Part shown: positions 270 to 61,357 of the stretch, piece after piece
Numbering within the stretch: position 1 is the stretch's first letter
How the letters are laid out: each line of letters begins with the position of its first letter
IMG/VR virus record: IMGVR_UViG_3300018432_000004
Location: 8,156 to 72,155 of that record
Strand: one strand, 5' to 3'
Length of the DNA: 64,000 nucleotides
Origin: a virus
Program-made: the position numbers and the translations under genes
The notes under the pieces: generated by a model
Databases searched by the model: none
What the model was told of the DNA's origin: nothing
What the model saw: only the letters and a program-made list of their open reading frames with translations

Positions 270-817
270 CTCTGACGGACCCCGACGCCCTGCTCGACAT
301 GATCGACGCCCACCAGGGCGCCACGCGCCGCGCCGCGCGCCGGATCGCCGACGCCGGCGTCGATCACCTCGAGCGCAGCGTGCAACGCCGGACACCGATC
401 GACACGAACCCCTACCGCGCGAAGCCCGAGCGCCCCCGCGGATCCCTGCGCCGCAGCATCCACCGACGCGCCGGCGTGGACTTCGTCGTGCGGGGCGGCC
501 GCGAGTCCTACCGCGGCACCGTCGAGACGTTCGACCCGATCGCCCGCTACGTCGAGTTCGACACGCCGCCGCACATCATCCGCCCGCGCACGCCCGGCAG
601 GCGCCTGCGCTTCCAGTCGCGCCACGGCTTCGTGGACCGCGACGGCGAGTTCCACCCGCCCGGCACCTGGATCACCGTCACGGAGGTCAAGCACCCCGGC
701 ACGAAGGGCTCCCACATGTTCACCCTCGGCGCGTGGGCCACCGAGCGCGAGTTCCGCGCCTACGCCCGCGACCCGCTCGCGCGCTGGAAGCATGAGGTCG
801 AGTCCGTCCACACCTAG
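266..817 (+). CDS. HK97 gp10-like neck/tail-completion protein
   Basis: RTPIDT..GSLRRSI, ARYVEFDTPPHIIRP..LRF..VKHPGTKG motif pattern; position upstream of the tail genes. Confidence 0.7.
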   Translation: MPLTDPDALLDMIDAHQGATRRAARRIADAGVDHLERSVQRRTPIDTNPYRAKPERPRGSLRRSIHRRAGVDFVVRGGRESYRGTVETFDPIARYVEFDTPPHIIRPRTPGRRLRFQSRHGFVDRDGEFHPPGTWITVTEVKHPGTKGSHMFTLGAWATEREFRAYARDPLARWKHEVESVHT

Positions 818-873
818 TCTCCGCTTGACTCCGAGACTACCCCGGCGCTACAGTGTGCGGCACAAGGCAACCC
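815..873 (+). promoter_or_regulatory. SigA-type promoter with conserved operator/leader motif (copy 1)
   Basis: TTGACT 825-830, 18-bp spacer, TACAGT 849-854, then GTGCGGCACAAGGCAACCC; TAGTCTC/GAGACTA inverted repeat (815-821, 833-839) around the -35. Confidence 0.8.
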
Positions 874-17343: not shown

Positions 17344-17730
17344 ATGCTGAAGGCATTCGCAGGCGCGCGGCCGGACATCACGCCGGCCCAAACCACGGCG
17401 ATCATCGCGGCCGTCGCGCAGTTCCTTCGCGCGTTCGGGATCTACGACGTGTCGCCCGAGCAGCAGGACGCGCTCAACGTCGCGTGCGGGCTGCTGCTCG
17501 CCGTCGTCCTGGGCGACGTCGGGATCCGCGCCGCCCGCAACTCCGCCGACGCGAAGCGCGACGTCGCCGCGCTGACCGCCGCGCCGCACCCGCCGATGAG
17601 CGACCCGCCCGAGGACCCCGAGCACGACGAGCTCATGGCCGAGGGAGAGGACCTCCCCGGCGACGCCGAGGAGTTCGCCGCGCAGCCCGACCAGGCGTCG
17701 CGCGTCACCCCCGACGAGCCGCCCGCATGA
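17344..17730 (+). CDS. Putative holin
   Basis: Two hydrophobic segments, acidic C-tail, between two endolysins; GGAGGG RBS. Confidence 0.7.
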   Translation: MLKAFAGARPDITPAQTTAIIAAVAQFLRAFGIYDVSPEQQDALNVACGLLLAVVLGDVGIRAARNSADAKRDVAALTAAPHPPMSDPPEDPEHDELMAEGEDLPGDAEEFAAQPDQASRVTPDEPPA

Positions 17731-18389
17731 ACCGCAAGCTCTCCGACGCGGGCGCGCACCTGATCGAGTCCTTCGAGGGGTTCAGCTCCAAGCCCTACTG
17801 GGACGACGATGGCGGCGTCTGGACGATCGGGTTCGGCAGCACCAAGGGCGTTCGCAAGGACTCGCCGCACATCACGCGCCAGCAGGCCCACGACCGCCTC
17901 ATGCGCGAGGTCGACGCGACGTACGGCGCCGCGATCAACGCCCTCGGGCTGCCGCTCTCGCAGCCGCAGTTCGACGCGCTGACGAGCTTCGTCTACAACG
18001 TCGGGCCGGGCGGCGTCGCGACCTCGACGGGCGTCGGCCGGGCGCTGCGCGCCCGCGACTGGCGGACGGCCGCGGACCGCCTGCTCGACTGGGACAAGGC
18101 GGGCGGGCGCCGCCTGCTCGGGCTCACCCGTCGCCGCCGGGCCGAGCGGGCGCTGTTCCTGCGCACGCCGGCGGTCGATCCGCTCGCGGGATACCGGGCC
18201 GACGAGAAGCGCTGGATCCGCGAGTACGACGAGCTCAAGCGCGAGAACCGCAACGAGCGCCGCCGCGAGGTTCTGCGCTCGGTGATGACGACGCGCCGCA
18301 AGGCGATCTGGACCGCCGGCGAGAAGGCCGGCTGGGACGTCGCCAAGCGCCGCCAGCGCTACCGCAGCCTGCTCGCTCGCACGACCTGA
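17727..18389 (+). CDS. Endolysin B: GH24 phage lysozyme plus C-terminal basic domain
   Basis: LIESFEGFSSKPYWDDDGGVWTIGFG, QFDALTSFVYNVG, GLTRRRRAERALF. Confidence 0.9.
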   Translation: MNRKLSDAGAHLIESFEGFSSKPYWDDDGGVWTIGFGSTKGVRKDSPHITRQQAHDRLMREVDATYGAAINALGLPLSQPQFDALTSFVYNVGPGGVATSTGVGRALRARDWRTAADRLLDWDKAGGRRLLGLTRRRRAERALFLRTPAVDPLAGYRADEKRWIREYDELKRENRNERRREVLRSVMTTRRKAIWTAGEKAGWDVAKRRQRYRSLLARTT

Positions 18390-18440
18390 CCGCTCGGCGA
18401 AGCGTCCAGGTATCGGCGGTCTGCTGCTGTACGCTGACAC

Positions 18441-18545
18441 GACGACGACGCACGGTTCCTCCGGTGCAAGGGGTTGCTTCGGCAAGGCCCGCGTCGTCGT
18501 CTCCGGTACGCGCCGGTCCCGTCGCCTTCGGGCGGCGGGACTAGC
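18441..18545 (+). ncRNA. Candidate ~100-nt structured small RNA
   Basis: TACGCT at 18430-18435; 11-bp stem 18441-18451/18491-18501 enclosing a ttgc-TTCG-gcaa hairpin; second cUUCGg hairpin 18516-18541. Confidence 0.5.
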
Positions 18546-18562
18546 GCCCGCAGGTTCCCCGC

Positions 18563-18585
18563 GCTACGGTTGCCAGCGGCAACCC
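18563..18585 (+). promoter_or_regulatory. Variant of the promoter/leader motif upstream of the Bet-like gene
   Basis: GC-TACGGT-tgccagc-GGCAACCC, then GGAGG RBS. Confidence 0.6.
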
Positions 18586-18601
18586 ACCACCGGAGGACCG
18601 C

Positions 18602-19795
18602 ATGCCCCCGAAGAACGCCGCCAAGACGCCGCCCGCTCAACGCGCCGCCCGCCCGAAGGCGAAGCCGAAGCCGAGGCCGCAGAGCGCGGCCGTCCCGCGC
18701 CGGAGCGGCGGCGCCGCTCGCCGACCGCCGGGCCGTGCCCGGCAGCTCCCCCCGCTGACGGCCGACCTCGTCGAGCACTTCGGCGGGCAGGACCGCGTCG
18801 ACCTGATCGTCTCGGAGTGCGTGCCGCCCGACGCGACCGCTGGCGACGTGCTGCGGCTGCTGCTCGAGGCGCGCCGCCTTCGAGCCGACCCGCTGCGCCA
18901 CGACGTCTACCTCGCGCGCGGCAGCTCCCGCGACGGCGCCGGCGTCGAGTACTCCGTCGCCGCTAGGCGCGACGCCCTGCTCGCGTTCGCCGAGCGCCAG
19001 GACGACTTCGAGGGCTTCGAGGCGGAGGCCGTCTACAAGGGCGACACGTTCGGCCGAGCCGAGCCGATCGCCGACGGCGACACGCTGCGCAAGCGCGCCG
19101 GCGTCACGCACACGACCGTCGGCGTGCCCGAGGACGCCGAGCGGCCCGTCGCCGCGTGGTGCATCGTCGCGCGCCGCAACCGGCCGCCCGTCGTCTTCGT
19201 CGCTCGAGCGGCCGAGTACATGGCCGCCGCCGACTTCGACGCGCTCGACCCCGACGACCCTCGCAAGCGCTACCCCGACCGCTGGCTCGTCAAGGTCGCG
19301 ATGTGCTGGCCGCTGCGGATGGCCTTCGGCCTCAACGACGTCGTCGGCGCCGAGGAGCTGACGAAGCGCCCCGACCCGCTGCCCGACCTCGGCGAGCGCG
19401 CGGCACCCGCGATCTTCAAGGAGGGCCCGGTGGACGACCTCGACGCACGCATCCTCGACGCCTACACGCAGGCGCAGGCCCTCGACGCGCTGCTGTGGCC
19501 GCCCGCGAAGGTCAGCGCCCGCCTCGCTAGCGCCCGCGCGAAGGCCGCCGAGACGGGCGGCGATCCCGCGACGTTCGATGCTCTGCGCGACGAGCTCGCC
19601 GCAGAGATCGAGGTCGCCGTCGCCGCCGAGACCGCGCGCCGGCGCGACCCGCACGCGAACCGCCGGCGCCTCGCGGAGCTGCGCGCGTTCGACGCGTCGA
19701 CGCTCGACGAGGACGACCTGCGCGGCTACCGCACGGAGCTGGCAGCGGTCGAGGCGATGGTCCAGGCTGACGAAGCCTCGGCGGCCACGGCGTAG
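18602..19795 (+). CDS. Red-beta/RecT-like single-strand annealing protein
   Basis: ADPLRHDVYL, ALLAFAERQDDFEGFEAEAVYKGD, AAWCIVARRN, WLVKVAMCWPLRMAF. Confidence 0.7.
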   Translation: MPPKNAAKTPPAQRAARPKAKPKPRPQSAAVPRRSGGAARRPPGRARQLPPLTADLVEHFGGQDRVDLIVSECVPPDATAGDVLRLLLEARRLRADPLRHDVYLARGSSRDGAGVEYSVAARRDALLAFAERQDDFEGFEAEAVYKGDTFGRAEPIADGDTLRKRAGVTHTTVGVPEDAERPVAAWCIVARRNRPPVVFVARAAEYMAAADFDALDPDDPRKRYPDRWLVKVAMCWPLRMAFGLNDVVGAEELTKRPDPLPDLGERAAPAIFKEGPVDDLDARILDAYTQAQALDALLWPPAKVSARLASARAKAAETGGDPATFDALRDELAAEIEVAVAAETARRRDPHANRRRLAELRAFDASTLDEDDLRGYRTELAAVEAMVQADEASAATA

Positions 19796-19805
19796 AGTCG
19801 CCGCC

Positions 19806-19883
19806 ATGCAACCCCTGCGCCGTGCGCTAGCGGCTCGTCGTGTGTGCTCGACCATCGCAGCGCGTCGAAAGCGCTCGTCGTGA
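19806..19883 (+). CDS. Possible 25-aa leaderless basic peptide
   Basis: ATG 7 nt after TAGAGT; begins ATGCAACCCCT; stop overlaps the next GTG. Confidence 0.35.
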   Translation: MQPLRRALAARRVCSTIAARRKRSS

Positions 19884-20238: not shown

Positions 20239-21624
20239 ATGTCTGCTTTGCAACGGGACGAACGGCCGGCGGTTCCGTACCCGACGGCGCTGCTGCACTT
20301 CCCGGTGCTGCGCCAGTCGACGCTCGCCGGCTTCGCGGACTGCCAGCTCGCCGCAGGCTTCGGTCTGCGGATGGCGATCCCGAAGCCGGGGACGCAGGCG
20401 CTCCACACGAGCGGCTTCACGACGCACCGCCAGGCCGCGGGCCGGTTGATCCACGCGACGATCGCCGCGGCGCTCCGCCACATGGTCGAGCGGACCGAGG
20501 AGGCGATCGCGCCCGAGATCGTCCTCGACCTGTGGGACCGCGTCGTGCGCCAGGCCGACGCGCCCGTCGAGGACACGTTCGCGCTCCCCGCGCACGAGGA
20601 CGCGCTCGCGCGCCGAACGCTGCGCAAGTGGGCGCGCGACAACTCGTTCACGATCGCCGAGATATACGGCGTCGAGGAGCGGCTGCAGGCCGTCATCACG
20701 TACCCCGACGGAGCGGGCGGCGTCGTCGAGCGGACGCTGACCGGCCAGCTCGACCTCCTGCTCGTCGACCCGAGCGGCGCGCACGCGACCGTGCCCGACT
20801 GGAAGGACACGTGGAAGCTCCCGACGAAGAAGGGCGCCGAAGCTGACCTCGACGACTTCGACGACGAGGCGGAGGACGTCGGCGACGACACGCTCAGCCT
20901 CGAGGGCTACTTCCAGCAGCGCTTCTACGCGCTGCTGATCTTCCTCTGCCTGCCCGCCGTGCAGTCGGTCACGCTGCGCGAGTTCTACGTCCGGCGGTCC
21001 AAGCCGCGCGAGGCGACGATCTGGCGGCACGAGCTGCCGAACCTCGTCGCGTACTTCTCGGCGACGGCGGAGCGCTTCGACCGCTGCTACGAGACGGCGA
21101 TCATCACGCGCCGCGGCCGCGTGCGCCGGCGCGTCCTCGCGACCGTCGCGCAGTGGGGCGAGCCGAGCCCCGGCGCGCACTGCTCCTACTGCCCCGGCGC
21201 GATGGACTGCCCCGTCCCGCCCGAGGCGCGCGAGGCCGGGATGATCACCTCGCCGGCGGAGGCGCAAACCATCGCCGGGATCCTCATCCGCGCCAAGCGC
21301 GTCGTCAAGATGACCGAGGCGAGCCTGCGCACCTGGGCGGACCGCGAGGGCCCGGTCCGCGTGAAGGACGCGAAGCGCGACCGCTTCTTTGGCTACGTCG
21401 AGGCCGAGCGCGTCGAGCGGCCCTCGCTCAAGAAGCTCAACGAGGCGATGCTCGCCGGACGCGATCCCCGCACGCTCTACCGGGCGAAGACGCATACCCG
21501 GTTCGCCGACTTCAGCCCCGACGATCAGGTCAACCGCGAGATCAGCGACGAGGACACCGTCGCGATGTTTGAGGCCGCGGTCGAGCAGGCGAAGGCGAAG
21601 CGGCGTCGAAGGTCGGCGGCGTGA
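20239..21624 (+). CDS. Cas4/RecB-like PD-(D/E)XK exonuclease
   Basis: LTGQLDLLLVD..VPDWK, FQQRFYA, HCSYCP..DCP, N-terminal Cys (FADCQL). Confidence 0.8.
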   Translation: MSALQRDERPAVPYPTALLHFPVLRQSTLAGFADCQLAAGFGLRMAIPKPGTQALHTSGFTTHRQAAGRLIHATIAAALRHMVERTEEAIAPEIVLDLWDRVVRQADAPVEDTFALPAHEDALARRTLRKWARDNSFTIAEIYGVEERLQAVITYPDGAGGVVERTLTGQLDLLLVDPSGAHATVPDWKDTWKLPTKKGAEADLDDFDDEAEDVGDDTLSLEGYFQQRFYALLIFLCLPAVQSVTLREFYVRRSKPREATIWRHELPNLVAYFSATAERFDRCYETAIITRRGRVRRRVLATVAQWGEPSPGAHCSYCPGAMDCPVPPEAREAGMITSPAEAQTIAGILIRAKRVVKMTEASLRTWADREGPVRVKDAKRDRFFGYVEAERVERPSLKKLNEAMLAGRDPRTLYRAKTHTRFADFSPDDQVNREISDEDTVAMFEAAVEQAKAKRRRRSAA

Positions 21625-25241: not shown

Positions 25242-25259
25242 GCTGTGCGGCGCAACCCC
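25237..25259 (+). promoter_or_regulatory. Promoter/operator/leader motif (copy 2)
   Basis: gctaggctgtgcggcgcaacccc. Confidence 0.75.
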
Positions 25260-32496: not shown

Positions 32497-32519
32497 GCTA
32501 CACTGTGCGGCGCAACCCC
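32497..32519 (+). promoter_or_regulatory. Promoter/operator/leader motif (copy 4)
   Basis: gctacactgtgcggcgcaacccc. Confidence 0.8.
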
Positions 32520-36997: not shown

Positions 36998-37024
36998 GCT
37001 ACAGTGTGCGGCGCAAGCAACCCC
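36998..37024 (+). promoter_or_regulatory. Promoter/operator/leader motif (copy 5)
   Basis: gctacagtgtgcggcgcaagcaacccc. Confidence 0.8.
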
Positions 37025-47995: not shown

Positions 47996-48273
47996 CGGCG
48001 TTCGCGCTCGCGGCGCTCGGGCTCGTCGCGGGCGCCGGCCTCGGGATCTTCGTCACGCGGCGGCTGCACCGCCGCGTGGGCGGCTGGGGCGCCCGCCTGG
48101 GCCGCTCGCGGTTCCGCCGCGCGAACCTGCCCGTTGGGGGCTCGTGCACGCTCGTGCTGACGCTGACGCTGCCGACGCCGGGCGTTCTCGTGCCGGTGCT
48201 GCTCGGCGCCTCGGCCGCCATGGCGGCGACGGCGATCGGCTGGCGCTACGTCGACCCGCTCCCACCCGCTTAG
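47992..48273 (+). CDS. Membrane protein
   Basis: About three hydrophobic segments. Confidence 0.6.
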   Translation: MTAFALAALGLVAGAGLGIFVTRRLHRRVGGWGARLGRSRFRRANLPVGGSCTLVLTLTLPTPGVLVPVLLGASAAMAATAIGWRYVDPLPPA

Positions 48274-48328
48274 TCTCACGTTGCGTCGAGACTGGCGGAG
48301 CGCTACACTGTGCGGCACAAGCAACCCC
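48271..48328 (+). promoter_or_regulatory. SigA-type promoter with motif (copy 6)
   Basis: TTGCGT 48281-48286, 17-bp spacer, TACACT 48304-48309, gtgcggcacaagcaacccc; TAGTCTC/GAGACT around the -35 as in copy 1. Confidence 0.8.
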
Positions 48329-56192: not shown

Positions 56193-58861
56193 CCACGAGT
56201 TCCGCCAGCCTCGATCGTTCGCCGAAGTCCAATTGGGTGCAGGAGGCCGGCGGGCTGCCCCCGTACGTCCGCAAGATCGCCCGCGCGATCCACGAGAAGC
56301 GCGGGATCCCGCTGTCGCAGGCGATCCCGTTCGCGATCGGGCGCCTGAAGAAGTGGGCGGCAGGCGGCGACAACGTGACCGCCGAGACGCAGGCGAAGGC
56401 CGCGGCAGCGATCGCGGCGTGGAACCGCCTCAAGTCGAAGGCCGGGAAGCTGACCGAGGCCGAGGCGCTCGGAGGCGTCCAGGTCCGCGACGAGAACCTC
56501 GGCGTGCCGACCCCGCTGCTCCTCGCGTGGATCGACGAGCTCGACGACGCCGAGCAGCTCGTCGAGGCGGCGCTCGGCGGACACGACGAGAAGCTGCACC
56601 CCCGCGACCTGCTCGGCCGGTTCCGCACGAAGGTCGGCGCGCTGAAGGTCGGCGAGTCGGCAACACTGCCGGACGGCCGCAAGGTCGTCAAGACCGACCG
56701 CAAGGCGTTTGAGGGCGACAACTACCACGACGTGTACGACGAGAACGGTCGCATTCAGGCCAGCCAATCAAGCGCTCGGCTGGCGGCGGATTCAGCGGCG
56801 ACACGCAGCGCGCAGTCCACCGACCCCAAGTCGCTCGGCGGCGCGACGAAGTACCGCAACCTCGACGCCTTGCCGGCGAAGTCGGATAGCAAGCCCGTCC
56901 GCGACAGCCCGGCCGGCTCGGGGAAGTCGTTCGCCGAGGGCGTGTCGGCGGCGTACAACGCGAACGCCGCGAACGCCGCGAAGGCGAGCCGCCCCGAGGG
57001 GGCATCCGACGAGCGCGAGCGGGCTCGGGCGTACCAGGCGCTCGACCCGCTCAAGGTCGGCGACTCCGCGAAGTGGGGCACGCTGACCGTCAAGCGCCTG
57101 CCGGACGACTCGCAGGGCCGCGCGCAGTTCGACGTGGACGGCAAGACGATGGGCGGCTCACGGACGATCTCACGCATGGTCGAGAAGGGGCGCGCAACGG
57201 CGACCCCCGCCCGAGCGAACACCCCGAGCGCAGACCCGGCCACCCGCCGACGCAACCGGACGACGGGCACGGTGCCGAAGTCGCAGAAGGGTGGCCCGGC
57301 GGCGGGGGGGCTGGACACCACGCGCGGCATCTTCCGCAAGTACGACGACGCCGGCCTGCTAGTCGCGCTCCGCGACCCGCAGCTCCAGGGAAAGAATCGT
57401 CGGCAGGCGGAGCGGGAGGCGCGCGCCCGAGGGCTCATCTCGGAGGACAAGACGCCGCCGCCGGGCGCGATCGTCCGTGGCAACAAGACCTACATGCCCG
57501 GCGATCCCGACTACGAGCGGCTGAGCAAGATCGTCGGACCGCCCGAGCCGGGAAGCCCGGCCGCGCGCAGCATGGCGAAGGTCGGCCAGACGGCCGGCGC
57601 ATCCGCCACGGTGCACGAGGGCAGGACCGTCAAGGCGGGCGACAAGGTGATCGTCGGTGAGCCGGGCAACGTGACCCGCGACGTGACCGCGACCGTGACG
57701 AAGATCGAGGGCGGCAAGGTCCACGTCAAGGGCCCGCACGGCACGAGCTCGCACGATCCCGCCGACGTCCAGGCCACGAGCACGAGCGCCAGCGCCGCCG
57801 CCGCCGCCGCAGACCTGCGGCAGCAGCTCAAGCGCGTCAACGCGACGCTCAAGTCCGGGAAGGGCCCGCAGGCGTACGCGAGGCGCCGCAAGGCCGAGAT
57901 CGAGCAGCAGCTCGCCAAGCTCGTCGAGGCGGCGACCCCGCCGACCCGCGTCAACCTGCGCACGAAGGGCGGGCGCATGGTCAACGTGTCGGTCGCGCAC
58001 GCCCGCCGGATCCACCTTCAGGGCAACGCCGCGGCCGATCAGCGGCCGGGCGCGAAGCCGCCCGCTGGCGCCCGCGACGGCGACTTCGAGTCGAAGCATC
58101 CGCGCGGCGGCAAGGGCTCGACGTCGGGCGGCAAGTTCGTCAAGAAGGGCAGCACCGGGACCGAGGTCCGTGCGATCCAGCGCCGCGTCGGCGCCCGCGT
58201 CGACGGAGCGTTCGGCGACAAGACGGCTGCGGCTGTCCGCGCCTTCCAGCAGAAGCACGGCCTCAAGGTCGACGGCATCGTCGGCAAGCAGACCGTCGCC
58301 GCGCTCCGCGGCCGCCGCGACGCCAAGCGCGTCGGCACCGGCGAGCTGACGAAGAAAGACCGCGAGTACCTCGCAGGCCACATCAGGGGCACCGGCCGCC
58401 AGACCCGCGGCAAGCTCACCAGCCTCGTTGAGGCCGTCACCCCGCCGCAGTTCCTCGAGCGCGTCCAGGCGCTGCAGCCCGGCGAGATCGCGCGGCTGCC
58501 CGACGGAGGCGCCGTCAAGCACCACAAGTCCGAGGACGGCCGCGACCTCTGGACCGCCGGGCGCCCGACGTCCTACGGCGAGAACGGCCTGAGCTGGCGC
58601 GAGCAGCACCGCACCCCCGAACTCGCCGTCGCGGACGCTCTGAGCGCCTCGGCGGGCTCGACGGACCCCGCGTCGCTCGGCGGCCCGAACCGCTTCGGCG
58701 GCTACACCCGCATCGCCGTCAACGGCCGACCCGCCCGCTTCGTCGGCGTGGACGCGAACTGCTCGCCGCTCGTGCGCTACGACGGCGCGAGCGTCGAGCC
58801 CGTCGCGGTCACGTGGCCCGAGCTCGTGCTCGCGCCGCGCCTCGTCGAAGCTCACCGCTGA
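56189..58861 (+). CDS. 890-aa modular head-associated protein with peptidoglycan-binding domain and internal repeats
   Basis: N-terminal NWVQEAGGLPPYVRKIA..KKWAAG domain; two HPR..G(R/K)F motifs; PGBD (GTEVRAIQ..VDGAFGDKT..FQQKHGLKVDGIVG). Confidence 0.8.
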   Translation: MTTSSASLDRSPKSNWVQEAGGLPPYVRKIARAIHEKRGIPLSQAIPFAIGRLKKWAAGGDNVTAETQAKAAAAIAAWNRLKSKAGKLTEAEALGGVQVRDENLGVPTPLLLAWIDELDDAEQLVEAALGGHDEKLHPRDLLGRFRTKVGALKVGESATLPDGRKVVKTDRKAFEGDNYHDVYDENGRIQASQSSARLAADSAATRSAQSTDPKSLGGATKYRNLDALPAKSDSKPVRDSPAGSGKSFAEGVSAAYNANAANAAKASRPEGASDERERARAYQALDPLKVGDSAKWGTLTVKRLPDDSQGRAQFDVDGKTMGGSRTISRMVEKGRATATPARANTPSADPATRRRNRTTGTVPKSQKGGPAAGGLDTTRGIFRKYDDAGLLVALRDPQLQGKNRRQAEREARARGLISEDKTPPPGAIVRGNKTYMPGDPDYERLSKIVGPPEPGSPAARSMAKVGQTAGASATVHEGRTVKAGDKVIVGEPGNVTRDVTATVTKIEGGKVHVKGPHGTSSHDPADVQATSTSASAAAAAADLRQQLKRVNATLKSGKGPQAYARRRKAEIEQQLAKLVEAATPPTRVNLRTKGGRMVNVSVAHARRIHLQGNAAADQRPGAKPPAGARDGDFESKHPRGGKGSTSGGKFVKKGSTGTEVRAIQRRVGARVDGAFGDKTAAAVRAFQQKHGLKVDGIVGKQTVAALRGRRDAKRVGTGELTKKDREYLAGHIRGTGRQTRGKLTSLVEAVTPPQFLERVQALQPGEIARLPDGGAVKHHKSEDGRDLWTAGRPTSYGENGLSWREQHRTPELAVADALSASAGSTDPASLGGPNRFGGYTRIAVNGRPARFVGVDANCSPLVRYDGASVEPVAVTWPELVLAPRLVEAHR

Positions 58862-61309: not shown

Positions 61310-61357
61310 TCGGCTGAGTTAGTCGCGAGGACTTCCCGCACCCTGCGCCCGTTTCAC

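Follow-up and report, generated by a model that had tools for sequence, protein, structure and literature searches.

The sequence analyzed here, hereafter called the window, is a stretch of 64,000 nt corresponding to bases 8156-72155 of a complete virus record of 73,616 bp with direct terminal repeats. The genome (73.6 kb, GC 72.8%) is that of an uncultured soil myophage, and all ORFs of the window with a coding-type codon bias, except one, are carried on the + strand. A 212-nt gap separates the gene for an endolysin from that for a RecT-family annealing protein, and the element described in this study is located in this gap (Table 1). Tail sheath, tape-measure and lysis genes are found upstream of the gap, and genes for Ku, a methyltransferase and a HerA-like ATPase, followed by terminase and portal, are found downstream, so that the gap is where the late block (tail and lysis) ends and the DNA-metabolism block begins. 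A search of the complete 73.6-kb genome for a tyrosine or serine recombinase (integrase) was negative, which points to a phage that is lytic or that persists without integrating; a non-integrating prophage may be compatible with this result. Because no recombinase was found, an immunity role in the style of P4 or P1 is less likely for the element than a role in timing within a lytic cycle. Although no recombinase was detected in it, this genome (G000) encodes Ku and RecT plus an exonuclease.

Table 1. Positions of the genes, promoter elements and RNA features considered in this study (window coordinates unless stated otherwise)
Feature	Position	Strand	Remarks
Endolysin gene, GH24-type (PF00959)	17484-18389	+	
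TACGCT, -10-like box of the candidate RNA	18430-18435	+	predicted start ~18442-18443
Outer stem P1, 5' arm, GACGACGACGC	18441-18451	+	pairs with 18491-18501 in the minimum-energy fold
CCUCC anti-Shine-Dalgarno box	18458-18462	+	part in an internal loop, part in P2
Apical hairpin P3, GCAA-GGGG-UUGC (anti-leader)	18466-18477	+	
Outer stem P1, 3' arm, GCGTCGTCGTC	18491-18501	+	
GC-rich hairpin of 12 bp with UUCG loop	18515-18542	+	putative 3' end or terminator of the candidate RNA and the late (lysis) operon
TAGCGC, -35-like box of the RecT promoter	18542-18547	+	17 nt before TACGGT
TACGGT, -10 of the RecT promoter	18565-18570	+	degenerate promoter-leader copy; kept before RecT in every relative
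RecT 5' UTR	18579-18604	+	leader GCAACCCA; Shine-Dalgarno GGAGG 18592-18596; ATG 18602
RecT-family annealing protein gene	18602-19795	+	PD-(D/E)XK nuclease gene next
Promoter-leader motif, strict copies (n = 7)	849, 25239, 27564, 32499, 37000, 48304, 61360		
Promoter-leader motif, looser copies	45650, 19795, 18565		18565 is RecT's own promoter
Reverse SAS copy of Adephagia	L246 38683-38695 (JF704105 58682-58694)		

RecT homologues with 39-65% identity are present in soil metagenome assemblies, and 12 further contigs were fetched through them by exact-protein look-ups, a route that is blind to the element itself. As a result, a total of 13 related contigs formed the comparative set; locus L017 belongs to the same contig as L003, as does G001, which is the second complete genome of the clade (73,425 bp). 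Other routes added little to this set. The GenBank phage collection gave no relative by DNA or protein match, a search of IMG/VR through RecT gave no relatives, and a metagenome scan with a RecT profile found none. A gapped DNA pattern search returned mostly chance matches together with one true relative (L017), and a metagenome scan with the pattern of anti-leader followed by leader returned only coincidences within coding sequence.

The genome carries a family of promoters with the motif gcTAC(A/G)(G/C)T-GTGCGGC-GCAACCCC, a longer variant of which ends in ...ACAAGCAACCCC. The leader core GCAACCCC begins ~7-12 nt after the -10 box of ten promoters and is followed by a start codon at 12-27 nt. 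Since the usual distance from a -10 box to the transcription start is 6-8 nt, the core can be placed at the 5' end of the mRNA, where it would form the first bases of the transcript, or bases 5-12 in the longer variants. In the window GCAACCCC occurs 13 times on the + strand, nine of these copies standing behind a TANNNT box, and once on the minus strand, this single copy being the candidate element. The bare 8-mer is unremarkable in one genome, as composition predicts ~2.7 copies per strand and four of the + copies are not associated with a promoter; for the 13-mer family at up to three mismatches, 12 matches were found against 4.4 +/- 1.8 expected, a number reached in 0/100 shuffles. The genes served by these leaders are non-structural and comprise a 72-aa ORF, RecT, a 56-aa ORF, Ku, a HARE-HTH protein, three small ORFs and an H2TH-domain protein. 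The leader promoters are found in the early region and, as insertions, within the structural region; what they single out is non-structural units, and not a temporal class that has been proven.

Ten leader promoters, one of them divergent, are present in G001. In that contig (11287-11426, loci L239 and L240) two leader promoters stand back to back, and this divergent pair serves the only minus-strand genes of that relative, which encode a collagen-repeat protein and its neighbour; the leader motif thus travels with its -10 box on either strand. Perfect palindromes of the form AGTCTC-N10/11-GAGACT cover the -35 region of two leader promoters of the window (816-838 and 48272-48293; two found against 0.01 expected), weaker versions occur near 61318 and 32460, and these palindromes are candidate operators for a protein regulator of the promoters concerned. 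In relatives (e.g. L001 11225-11260), the PD-(D/E)XK nuclease is called from a GTG directly before GCAACCCC, 9-12 nt after TAGCCT, and this start looks like a leaderless one with the leader motif inside the first codons. At the corresponding place of the window (19793-19883) the motif is one base off relative to an ATG and the frame stops after 25 codons; the nuclease ORF of the window starts at 20239.

The original prediction, made from the window sequence, had proposed that a small + strand RNA at 18430-18545 carries the antisense of this leader. Most of the parts it listed were found where it had placed them, including the TACGCT box, an 11-bp stem at the expected start, which begins 6 nt after the box, and the closing hairpin with its UUCG loop. 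Likewise, the segment CAAGGGGTTGCTT at 18467-18479 is the exact reverse complement of AAGCAACCCCTTG, and the match lengths given for the leaders are correct at 37015, 45662 and 48319 (10 nt) and at 32512 (11 nt), the shorter matches at 25252, 27577, 61373 and 19808 being 9 nt long. The multibranch interior, by contrast with these parts, was not borne out, because the window and most relatives form a single long interrupted hairpin with GCAA-GGGG-UUGC at its apex, and the UUGC-UUCG-GCAA hairpin is an alternative specific to the window that is not conserved. In the fold of the window two short inner helices lie between P1 and the apex, and the apical hairpin contains GGGGUUGC, to which the leader core GCAACCCC is reverse-complementary. 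The candidate fold has an energy of -58.1 kcal/mol (z = -3.2; 1/200 shuffles). The concern that the antisense segment is sequestered in a hairpin was largely settled: its GGGG half lies in the apical loop and is predicted to be accessible, and only UUGC is within a stem. For the RNA alone, the predicted probability that the GGGG loop is unpaired is at least 0.8 in 9/13 genomes.

One copy of the element is present in the same gap in 13/13 related contigs, and the gap before RecT measures 200-300 nt in all relatives. The order of the features is the same throughout and consists of a TANNNT box (mostly gGTACGCTg), a GC-rich outer stem 4-17 nt further on (13/13), the interior block (G/U)CAAGGGGUUG(C/U/A), a second strong hairpin at the same place with differing sequences, and the RecT promoter with its GCAACCC leader. 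A CCUCC-type box with at most one mismatch is found 7-17 nt 5' of the GGGG in 12/13 relatives. The columns that never vary in the MAFFT alignment correspond to T, A and T of the box, a single G, and CAAGGGGTTG (13/13). The first T, the A and the final T of the box are thus fixed, and the middle bases vary (CGC, CCC, CGA, GGA, GTC and GAC), a combination which, as far as sequence can tell, is the pattern of an actinobacterial -10 hexamer.

Each sequence individually reaches the P1-P2-P3 fold, even where P1 itself is different (L003, L004/L005, L230 and L232); P1 measures 6-13 bp in the relatives. RNAalifold on the plain MAFFT alignment recovered P1 and P3 only in part, because divergent rows were misaligned, and a covariance model (R1) was therefore built and the alignment based on it was used for the pairing statistics. 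R1 finds exactly one copy per locus with scores of 41-76 bits, nothing else in 261 kb exceeds 20 bits, and the copy in the gap is the sole one of the complete 73.6-kb genome. In the model alignment 83.3% of the cells can pair; shuffles give 76.5%, and sliding the partners gives 25-61%. Double changes are seen at nine pairs. The covariation looked for in related phages was obtained with a score of 0.273 versus 0.177 (0/500 shuffles reach 0.273), and the contribution of P1 is modest because the sequence of this stem varies rather little. At the closing pair of the apical hairpin, G-C is replaced by U-A in L233 and by G-U in L007. Pairs of the G-U type outnumber those of the A-C type (28 vs 12), an excess that favours a + strand RNA as the folded strand over the minus strand or DNA. 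The element is real and conserved, and + strand positions 18442-18542 most likely encode a structured regulatory RNA of ~100 nt.

Several known identities were considered and rejected. The reverse complement of the element resembles a leader, a spacer, GGAGG and GTG, as a minus-strand gene might. As the original prediction had stated for the window, the minus strand bears no TANNNT at the spacing of the promoter family, and this is true of every relative; 6/13 genomes lack a start codon near the box resembling a Shine-Dalgarno sequence, one ORF has six codons and none is conserved. With neither a minus-strand promoter nor a conserved ORF, the element is not a gene on that strand. A search of Rfam 15 gave no match in the 64-kb window at gathering thresholds, and under permissive settings the best hit in 18380-18610 had 18 bits against a threshold of 60, which is noise. 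No tRNA or tmRNA was found in the window by ARAGORN. The element is new to curated RNA libraries, and it is a conserved structured non-coding motif in a clade of uncultured soil myophages.

With respect to transcription, no -35 element conserved among the 13 relatives was found for the putative promoter of the candidate RNA. A look for expression data turned up one DNA run, the likely source sample, and no RNA run. In the window the predicted start (~18442) falls one base into P1; in the relatives it precedes the stem altogether. Only 7-17 nt separate the endolysin stop codon from the box in L008 and L234. No terminator was found between the endolysin stop and the box, so late (lysis) transcripts should end in the element as well. 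No U-tract follows the second hairpin and termination there is consequently not assured, which means that the RNA could run on into RecT. Stems of at least 10 bp number 26 in the genome, so it is the conservation of this hairpin, not its stability, that stands out. A consensus promoter and terminator scan found nothing, a result that says little in an actinophage with 73% GC, as the scan was tuned to sigma-70 -35/-10 promoters and to U-tract terminators. TAGCGC is found 16-18 nt before the RecT -10 in the window, L003, L008, L009, L233 and L234 (21 nt in L010), and because of this spacing it is probably the -35 element of RecT. It follows the hairpin directly, so that a terminator-like hairpin and the next promoter abut.

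A plain reading of these features would be that the hairpins only terminate or stabilize the 3' end of the long late transcript, with the TANNNT box incidental, the loop kept for some other purpose such as a protein binding the RNA hairpin, and the complementarity to leaders without function. The position after endolysin, the last late gene, is the right one where all genes lie on one strand, and a clean hairpin precedes none of the eight other leader promoters that were checked. However, a terminator requires neither an invariant 10-nt loop region nor an anti-Shine-Dalgarno box, it has no need of a -10 box in which only T, A and T are invariant, and it does not account for a complementarity that ranks first on the + strand and tracks the leader variants of each genome. 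We therefore give this explanation very little credence.

The interior of the element is, on the evidence of its bases, the antisense image of the generic 5' UTR of the promoter family of this phage. The CCUCC-type box lies 5' of the anti-leader, which is the correct antiparallel geometry for an mRNA in which the leader is followed by GGAGG. Against nine leaders, the 39-nt interior gave a mean duplex energy of -36.2 kcal/mol, compared with -25.9 +/- 2.3 for dinucleotide shuffles (1/500), and it ranked first of ~8000 39-nt windows of the + strand, 4 sd below the genome mean; the complementarity put forward by the original prediction thus exceeds both shuffled and genome-wide controls. When both strands were considered (15,992 39-nt windows), only the trivial leader antisense and three minus-strand windows were better. 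Gene starts bearing the leader pair at -41.1 kcal/mol, compared with -29.8 for 23 other gene starts with a Shine-Dalgarno sequence (Mann-Whitney p = 1e-5); segments from -38 to +3 were used in this comparison, and those with short leaders include a few untranscribed bases. The RecT 5' UTR pairs with the interior at -40.7 kcal/mol, no shuffle being as good (0/500), and it is the best predicted target.

The complementarity also follows differences among genomes. Pairing of each element with its own RecT UTR has a mean of -34.15 kcal/mol and cross-genome pairing -31.4 (permutation p = 0.004), a small gain of 2.7 kcal/mol that derives from few independent events. Beyond the common core, the interior of each genome resembles the reverse complement of its own RecT UTR, for example CACCGGAGGA in the window and GG(A/U)GGACAGA in L001. 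Similarly, GGGGUUGCUU of the window fits its three AAGCAACCCC leaders, and GGGGUUGCCUU of G001 fits its two AAGGCAACCCC leaders. In L233 the first base of the leader and the last base of the anti-leader are both off consensus, and they are not complementary. The universal complementary core is just 7-8 nt long, and half of it (UUGC) is within a stem. The complementarity ends at the predicted transcription start, and the conserved GTGCGGC between the -10 box and the leader has no antisense counterpart.

This boundary bears on the idea that conservation acts at the level of DNA, with GCAACCCC belonging to an operator bound by a phage or host protein at every leader promoter and the inverted palindromic GCAAGGGGTTGC as a stronger site, for instance a roadblock between late and early genes comparable to the stoperators of mycobacteriophage L5. 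Promoter conservation extends from -14 to ~+12, beyond what RNA polymerase itself should need, and GCAA-N4-TTGC is a perfect palindrome that is still palindromic in L233 (TCAA-N4-TTGA). As a result, the conservation of this part, the L233 covariation included, fits a dimeric DNA-binding protein equally well. An operator, however, would not be expected to repeat in its inverted copy only the transcribed part of the promoter motif and to omit GTGCGGC. It also has no need for the two further covarying helices topped by the motif or for G-U over A-C pairs, and it leaves the adjacent anti-Shine-Dalgarno box and the conserved -10 box upstream unaccounted for. For two promoters, moreover, the AGTCTC palindromes over the -35 region are better operator candidates. 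Stoperators share with the leader motif the occurrence of many asymmetric 13-bp copies in one orientation relative to transcription; they are repressor sites in duplex DNA, whereas here the copy in the odd orientation is embedded in a covarying structure of the RNA type. Taken together, an operator seems quite improbable.

A further explanation would confine the pairing to a single molecule. The anti-UTR would pair with the RecT UTR on the same transcript, arising from the upstream box or from endolysin read-through, and would hide the RecT ribosome-binding site, while transcripts from the RecT promoter, lacking the anti-UTR, would be translated and the match to other leaders would be a by-product of the likeness among leaders. 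Indeed, when the whole gap is folded, 18453-18480 pairs with 18570-18600 in the minimum-energy structure; the RecT UTR is also the best predicted target, and pairing within a genome is stronger than across genomes. In read-through RNAs the pairing probability between anti-leader and RecT leader is at least 0.7 in 6/13 genomes; against this, in another 6/13 it is at most 0.01 and the local fold wins. Because a very stable conserved hairpin and the RecT -35 element separate the two partners, read-through may moreover be rare, and pairing in cis leaves unexplained why the invariant block is the part common to all leaders and not the part specific to RecT. We consider a purely cis-acting role unlikely.

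The reading we favour, with about an even chance of being correct, is a trans-acting RNA that base-pairs with leader-bearing mRNAs, in the form of a small RNA and/or the 3' UTR of late transcripts, and occludes ribosome-binding sites after nucleation by a GGGG/CCCC loop contact. According to this model, the RNA would be made from its own TANNNT promoter, and late (lysis) transcripts would carry it at their 3' ends as well. It would fold into the long P1-P2-P3 hairpin followed by the GC-rich 3' hairpin. The free GGGG loop would first contact the CCCC of a leader, and the duplex would then spread to UUGC/GCAA and to the anti-Shine-Dalgarno box and its target. Pairing would thereby occlude the ribosome-binding site at the first gene of each leader-bearing unit, RecT being hit hardest and Ku, the HARE-HTH unit, the H2TH-domain protein and several small ORFs being affected as well, and translation of the targets, possibly also their stability, would fall. 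The original claim of one trans-acting RNA directed at a whole transcript class stands in part: a conserved promoter-like box, a + strand structure and a loop complementarity beyond controls speak for it, and the 3' hairpin without a U-tract speaks against it. From these features we infer the transcription and 3' end of the RNA as well as the direction and timing of its regulation, and the early-to-late switch envisaged at the outset is purely conjectural. The element is accordingly viewed as a strong but unproven candidate small RNA for the regulation of leader-bearing transcripts.

Phage regulatory RNAs have, to our knowledge, been described mainly in a small number of enterobacterial phages, each RNA acting on one transcript. 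The c4 RNA of phages P1 and P7 and the CI RNA of satellite P4 are small structured phage RNAs in which short loop or single-stranded segments pair with repeated targets in their own transcripts. They are processed from the transcript that carries the target, control a block of phage genes and serve as immunity factors of temperate elements, and the targets of P1 c4 include a ribosome-binding site. Membership in this type was rejected for the candidate, whose predicted targets are 5' ends from ~ten separate promoters across the genome and which has its own promoter box, no Rfam match and no integrase in the complete genome. In DapZ and MicL of enterobacteria the promoter lies within the upstream gene, near its end, or at that end, and the terminator is shared with the mRNA, so that the seed is made both as a small RNA and as a 3' UTR. 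The candidate would resemble them if it overlaps the 3' end of a late mRNA and is transcribed from its promoter-like box, but these are host RNAs that depend on Hfq and end in U-rich terminators, whereas the candidate is a phage element of 73% GC without a U-tract. In phage T4, the translational repressor RegA and the endoribonuclease RegB each represent one factor that shuts many early mRNAs at their ribosome-binding sites; they are proteins, and the factor proposed here is an RNA that would recognise a shared leader together with the Shine-Dalgarno sequence.

The closest parallel in genome layout is offered by the start-associated sequences (SAS/ESAS) of Cluster K mycobacteriophages, in which a short asymmetric motif in one orientation precedes 13-19 non-structural genes (PMC3203893, PMC11373665). 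A single SAS copy in reverse orientation and without a gene was noted in PMC3203893, the role of SAS was still termed ill-defined in 2024 (PMC11373665), and late transcription appears to begin between genes 92 and 93 (PMC11373665). In Adephagia we found 16 forward SAS copies and one reverse copy (Table 1), the latter in the gap between genes 92 and 93, where it makes up the 10-nt loop CCUCCUAUCC at the apex of a ~19-bp hairpin (58,660-58,715; z = -4.7). This hairpin is kept in Anaya, Validus and LilPharaoh and is absent from five phages of other subclusters. As in the window, the lone reverse copy of the motif in Cluster K1 sits in the apical loop of a hairpin. The two motifs are unrelated in sequence, however, and the reverse SAS hairpin is found only in K1-type phages. 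The SAS motif (GGGATAGGAGCCC, 13 bp) includes the Shine-Dalgarno sequence and is found 3-9 bp ahead of the start codon, whereas the motif of the window is at the 5' end of the transcript beside the -10 box; given these differences in sequence and position, membership in the SAS/ESAS family was rejected. The Adephagia hairpin repeats this layout independently in an unrelated phage that can be cultivated, and it is a lead and not proof.

More broadly, it is conceivable, though on balance doubtful, that in a lytic actinophage lineage one small RNA acts as a master regulator, with a mimic of the anti-Shine-Dalgarno sequence and an anti-leader loop by which it silences the whole set of genes under the common promoter, and that the same principle would explain the reverse SAS of Cluster K1, whose function has been open since 2011, with Adephagia in M. 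smegmatis as a cultivable system. If the trans-acting reading is true, an RNA aimed at a leader common to a promoter class would be a new and economical way to time viral genes and the RNA counterpart of T4 RegA/RegB, and the conserved promoter-proximal leaders of actinophages would be RNA-level recognition tags. It would also supply a testable hypothesis for the unexplained SAS of Cluster K. Whatever the mechanism, a new conserved structured motif has been added to the biology of these phages, with the covariance model R1 in hand.
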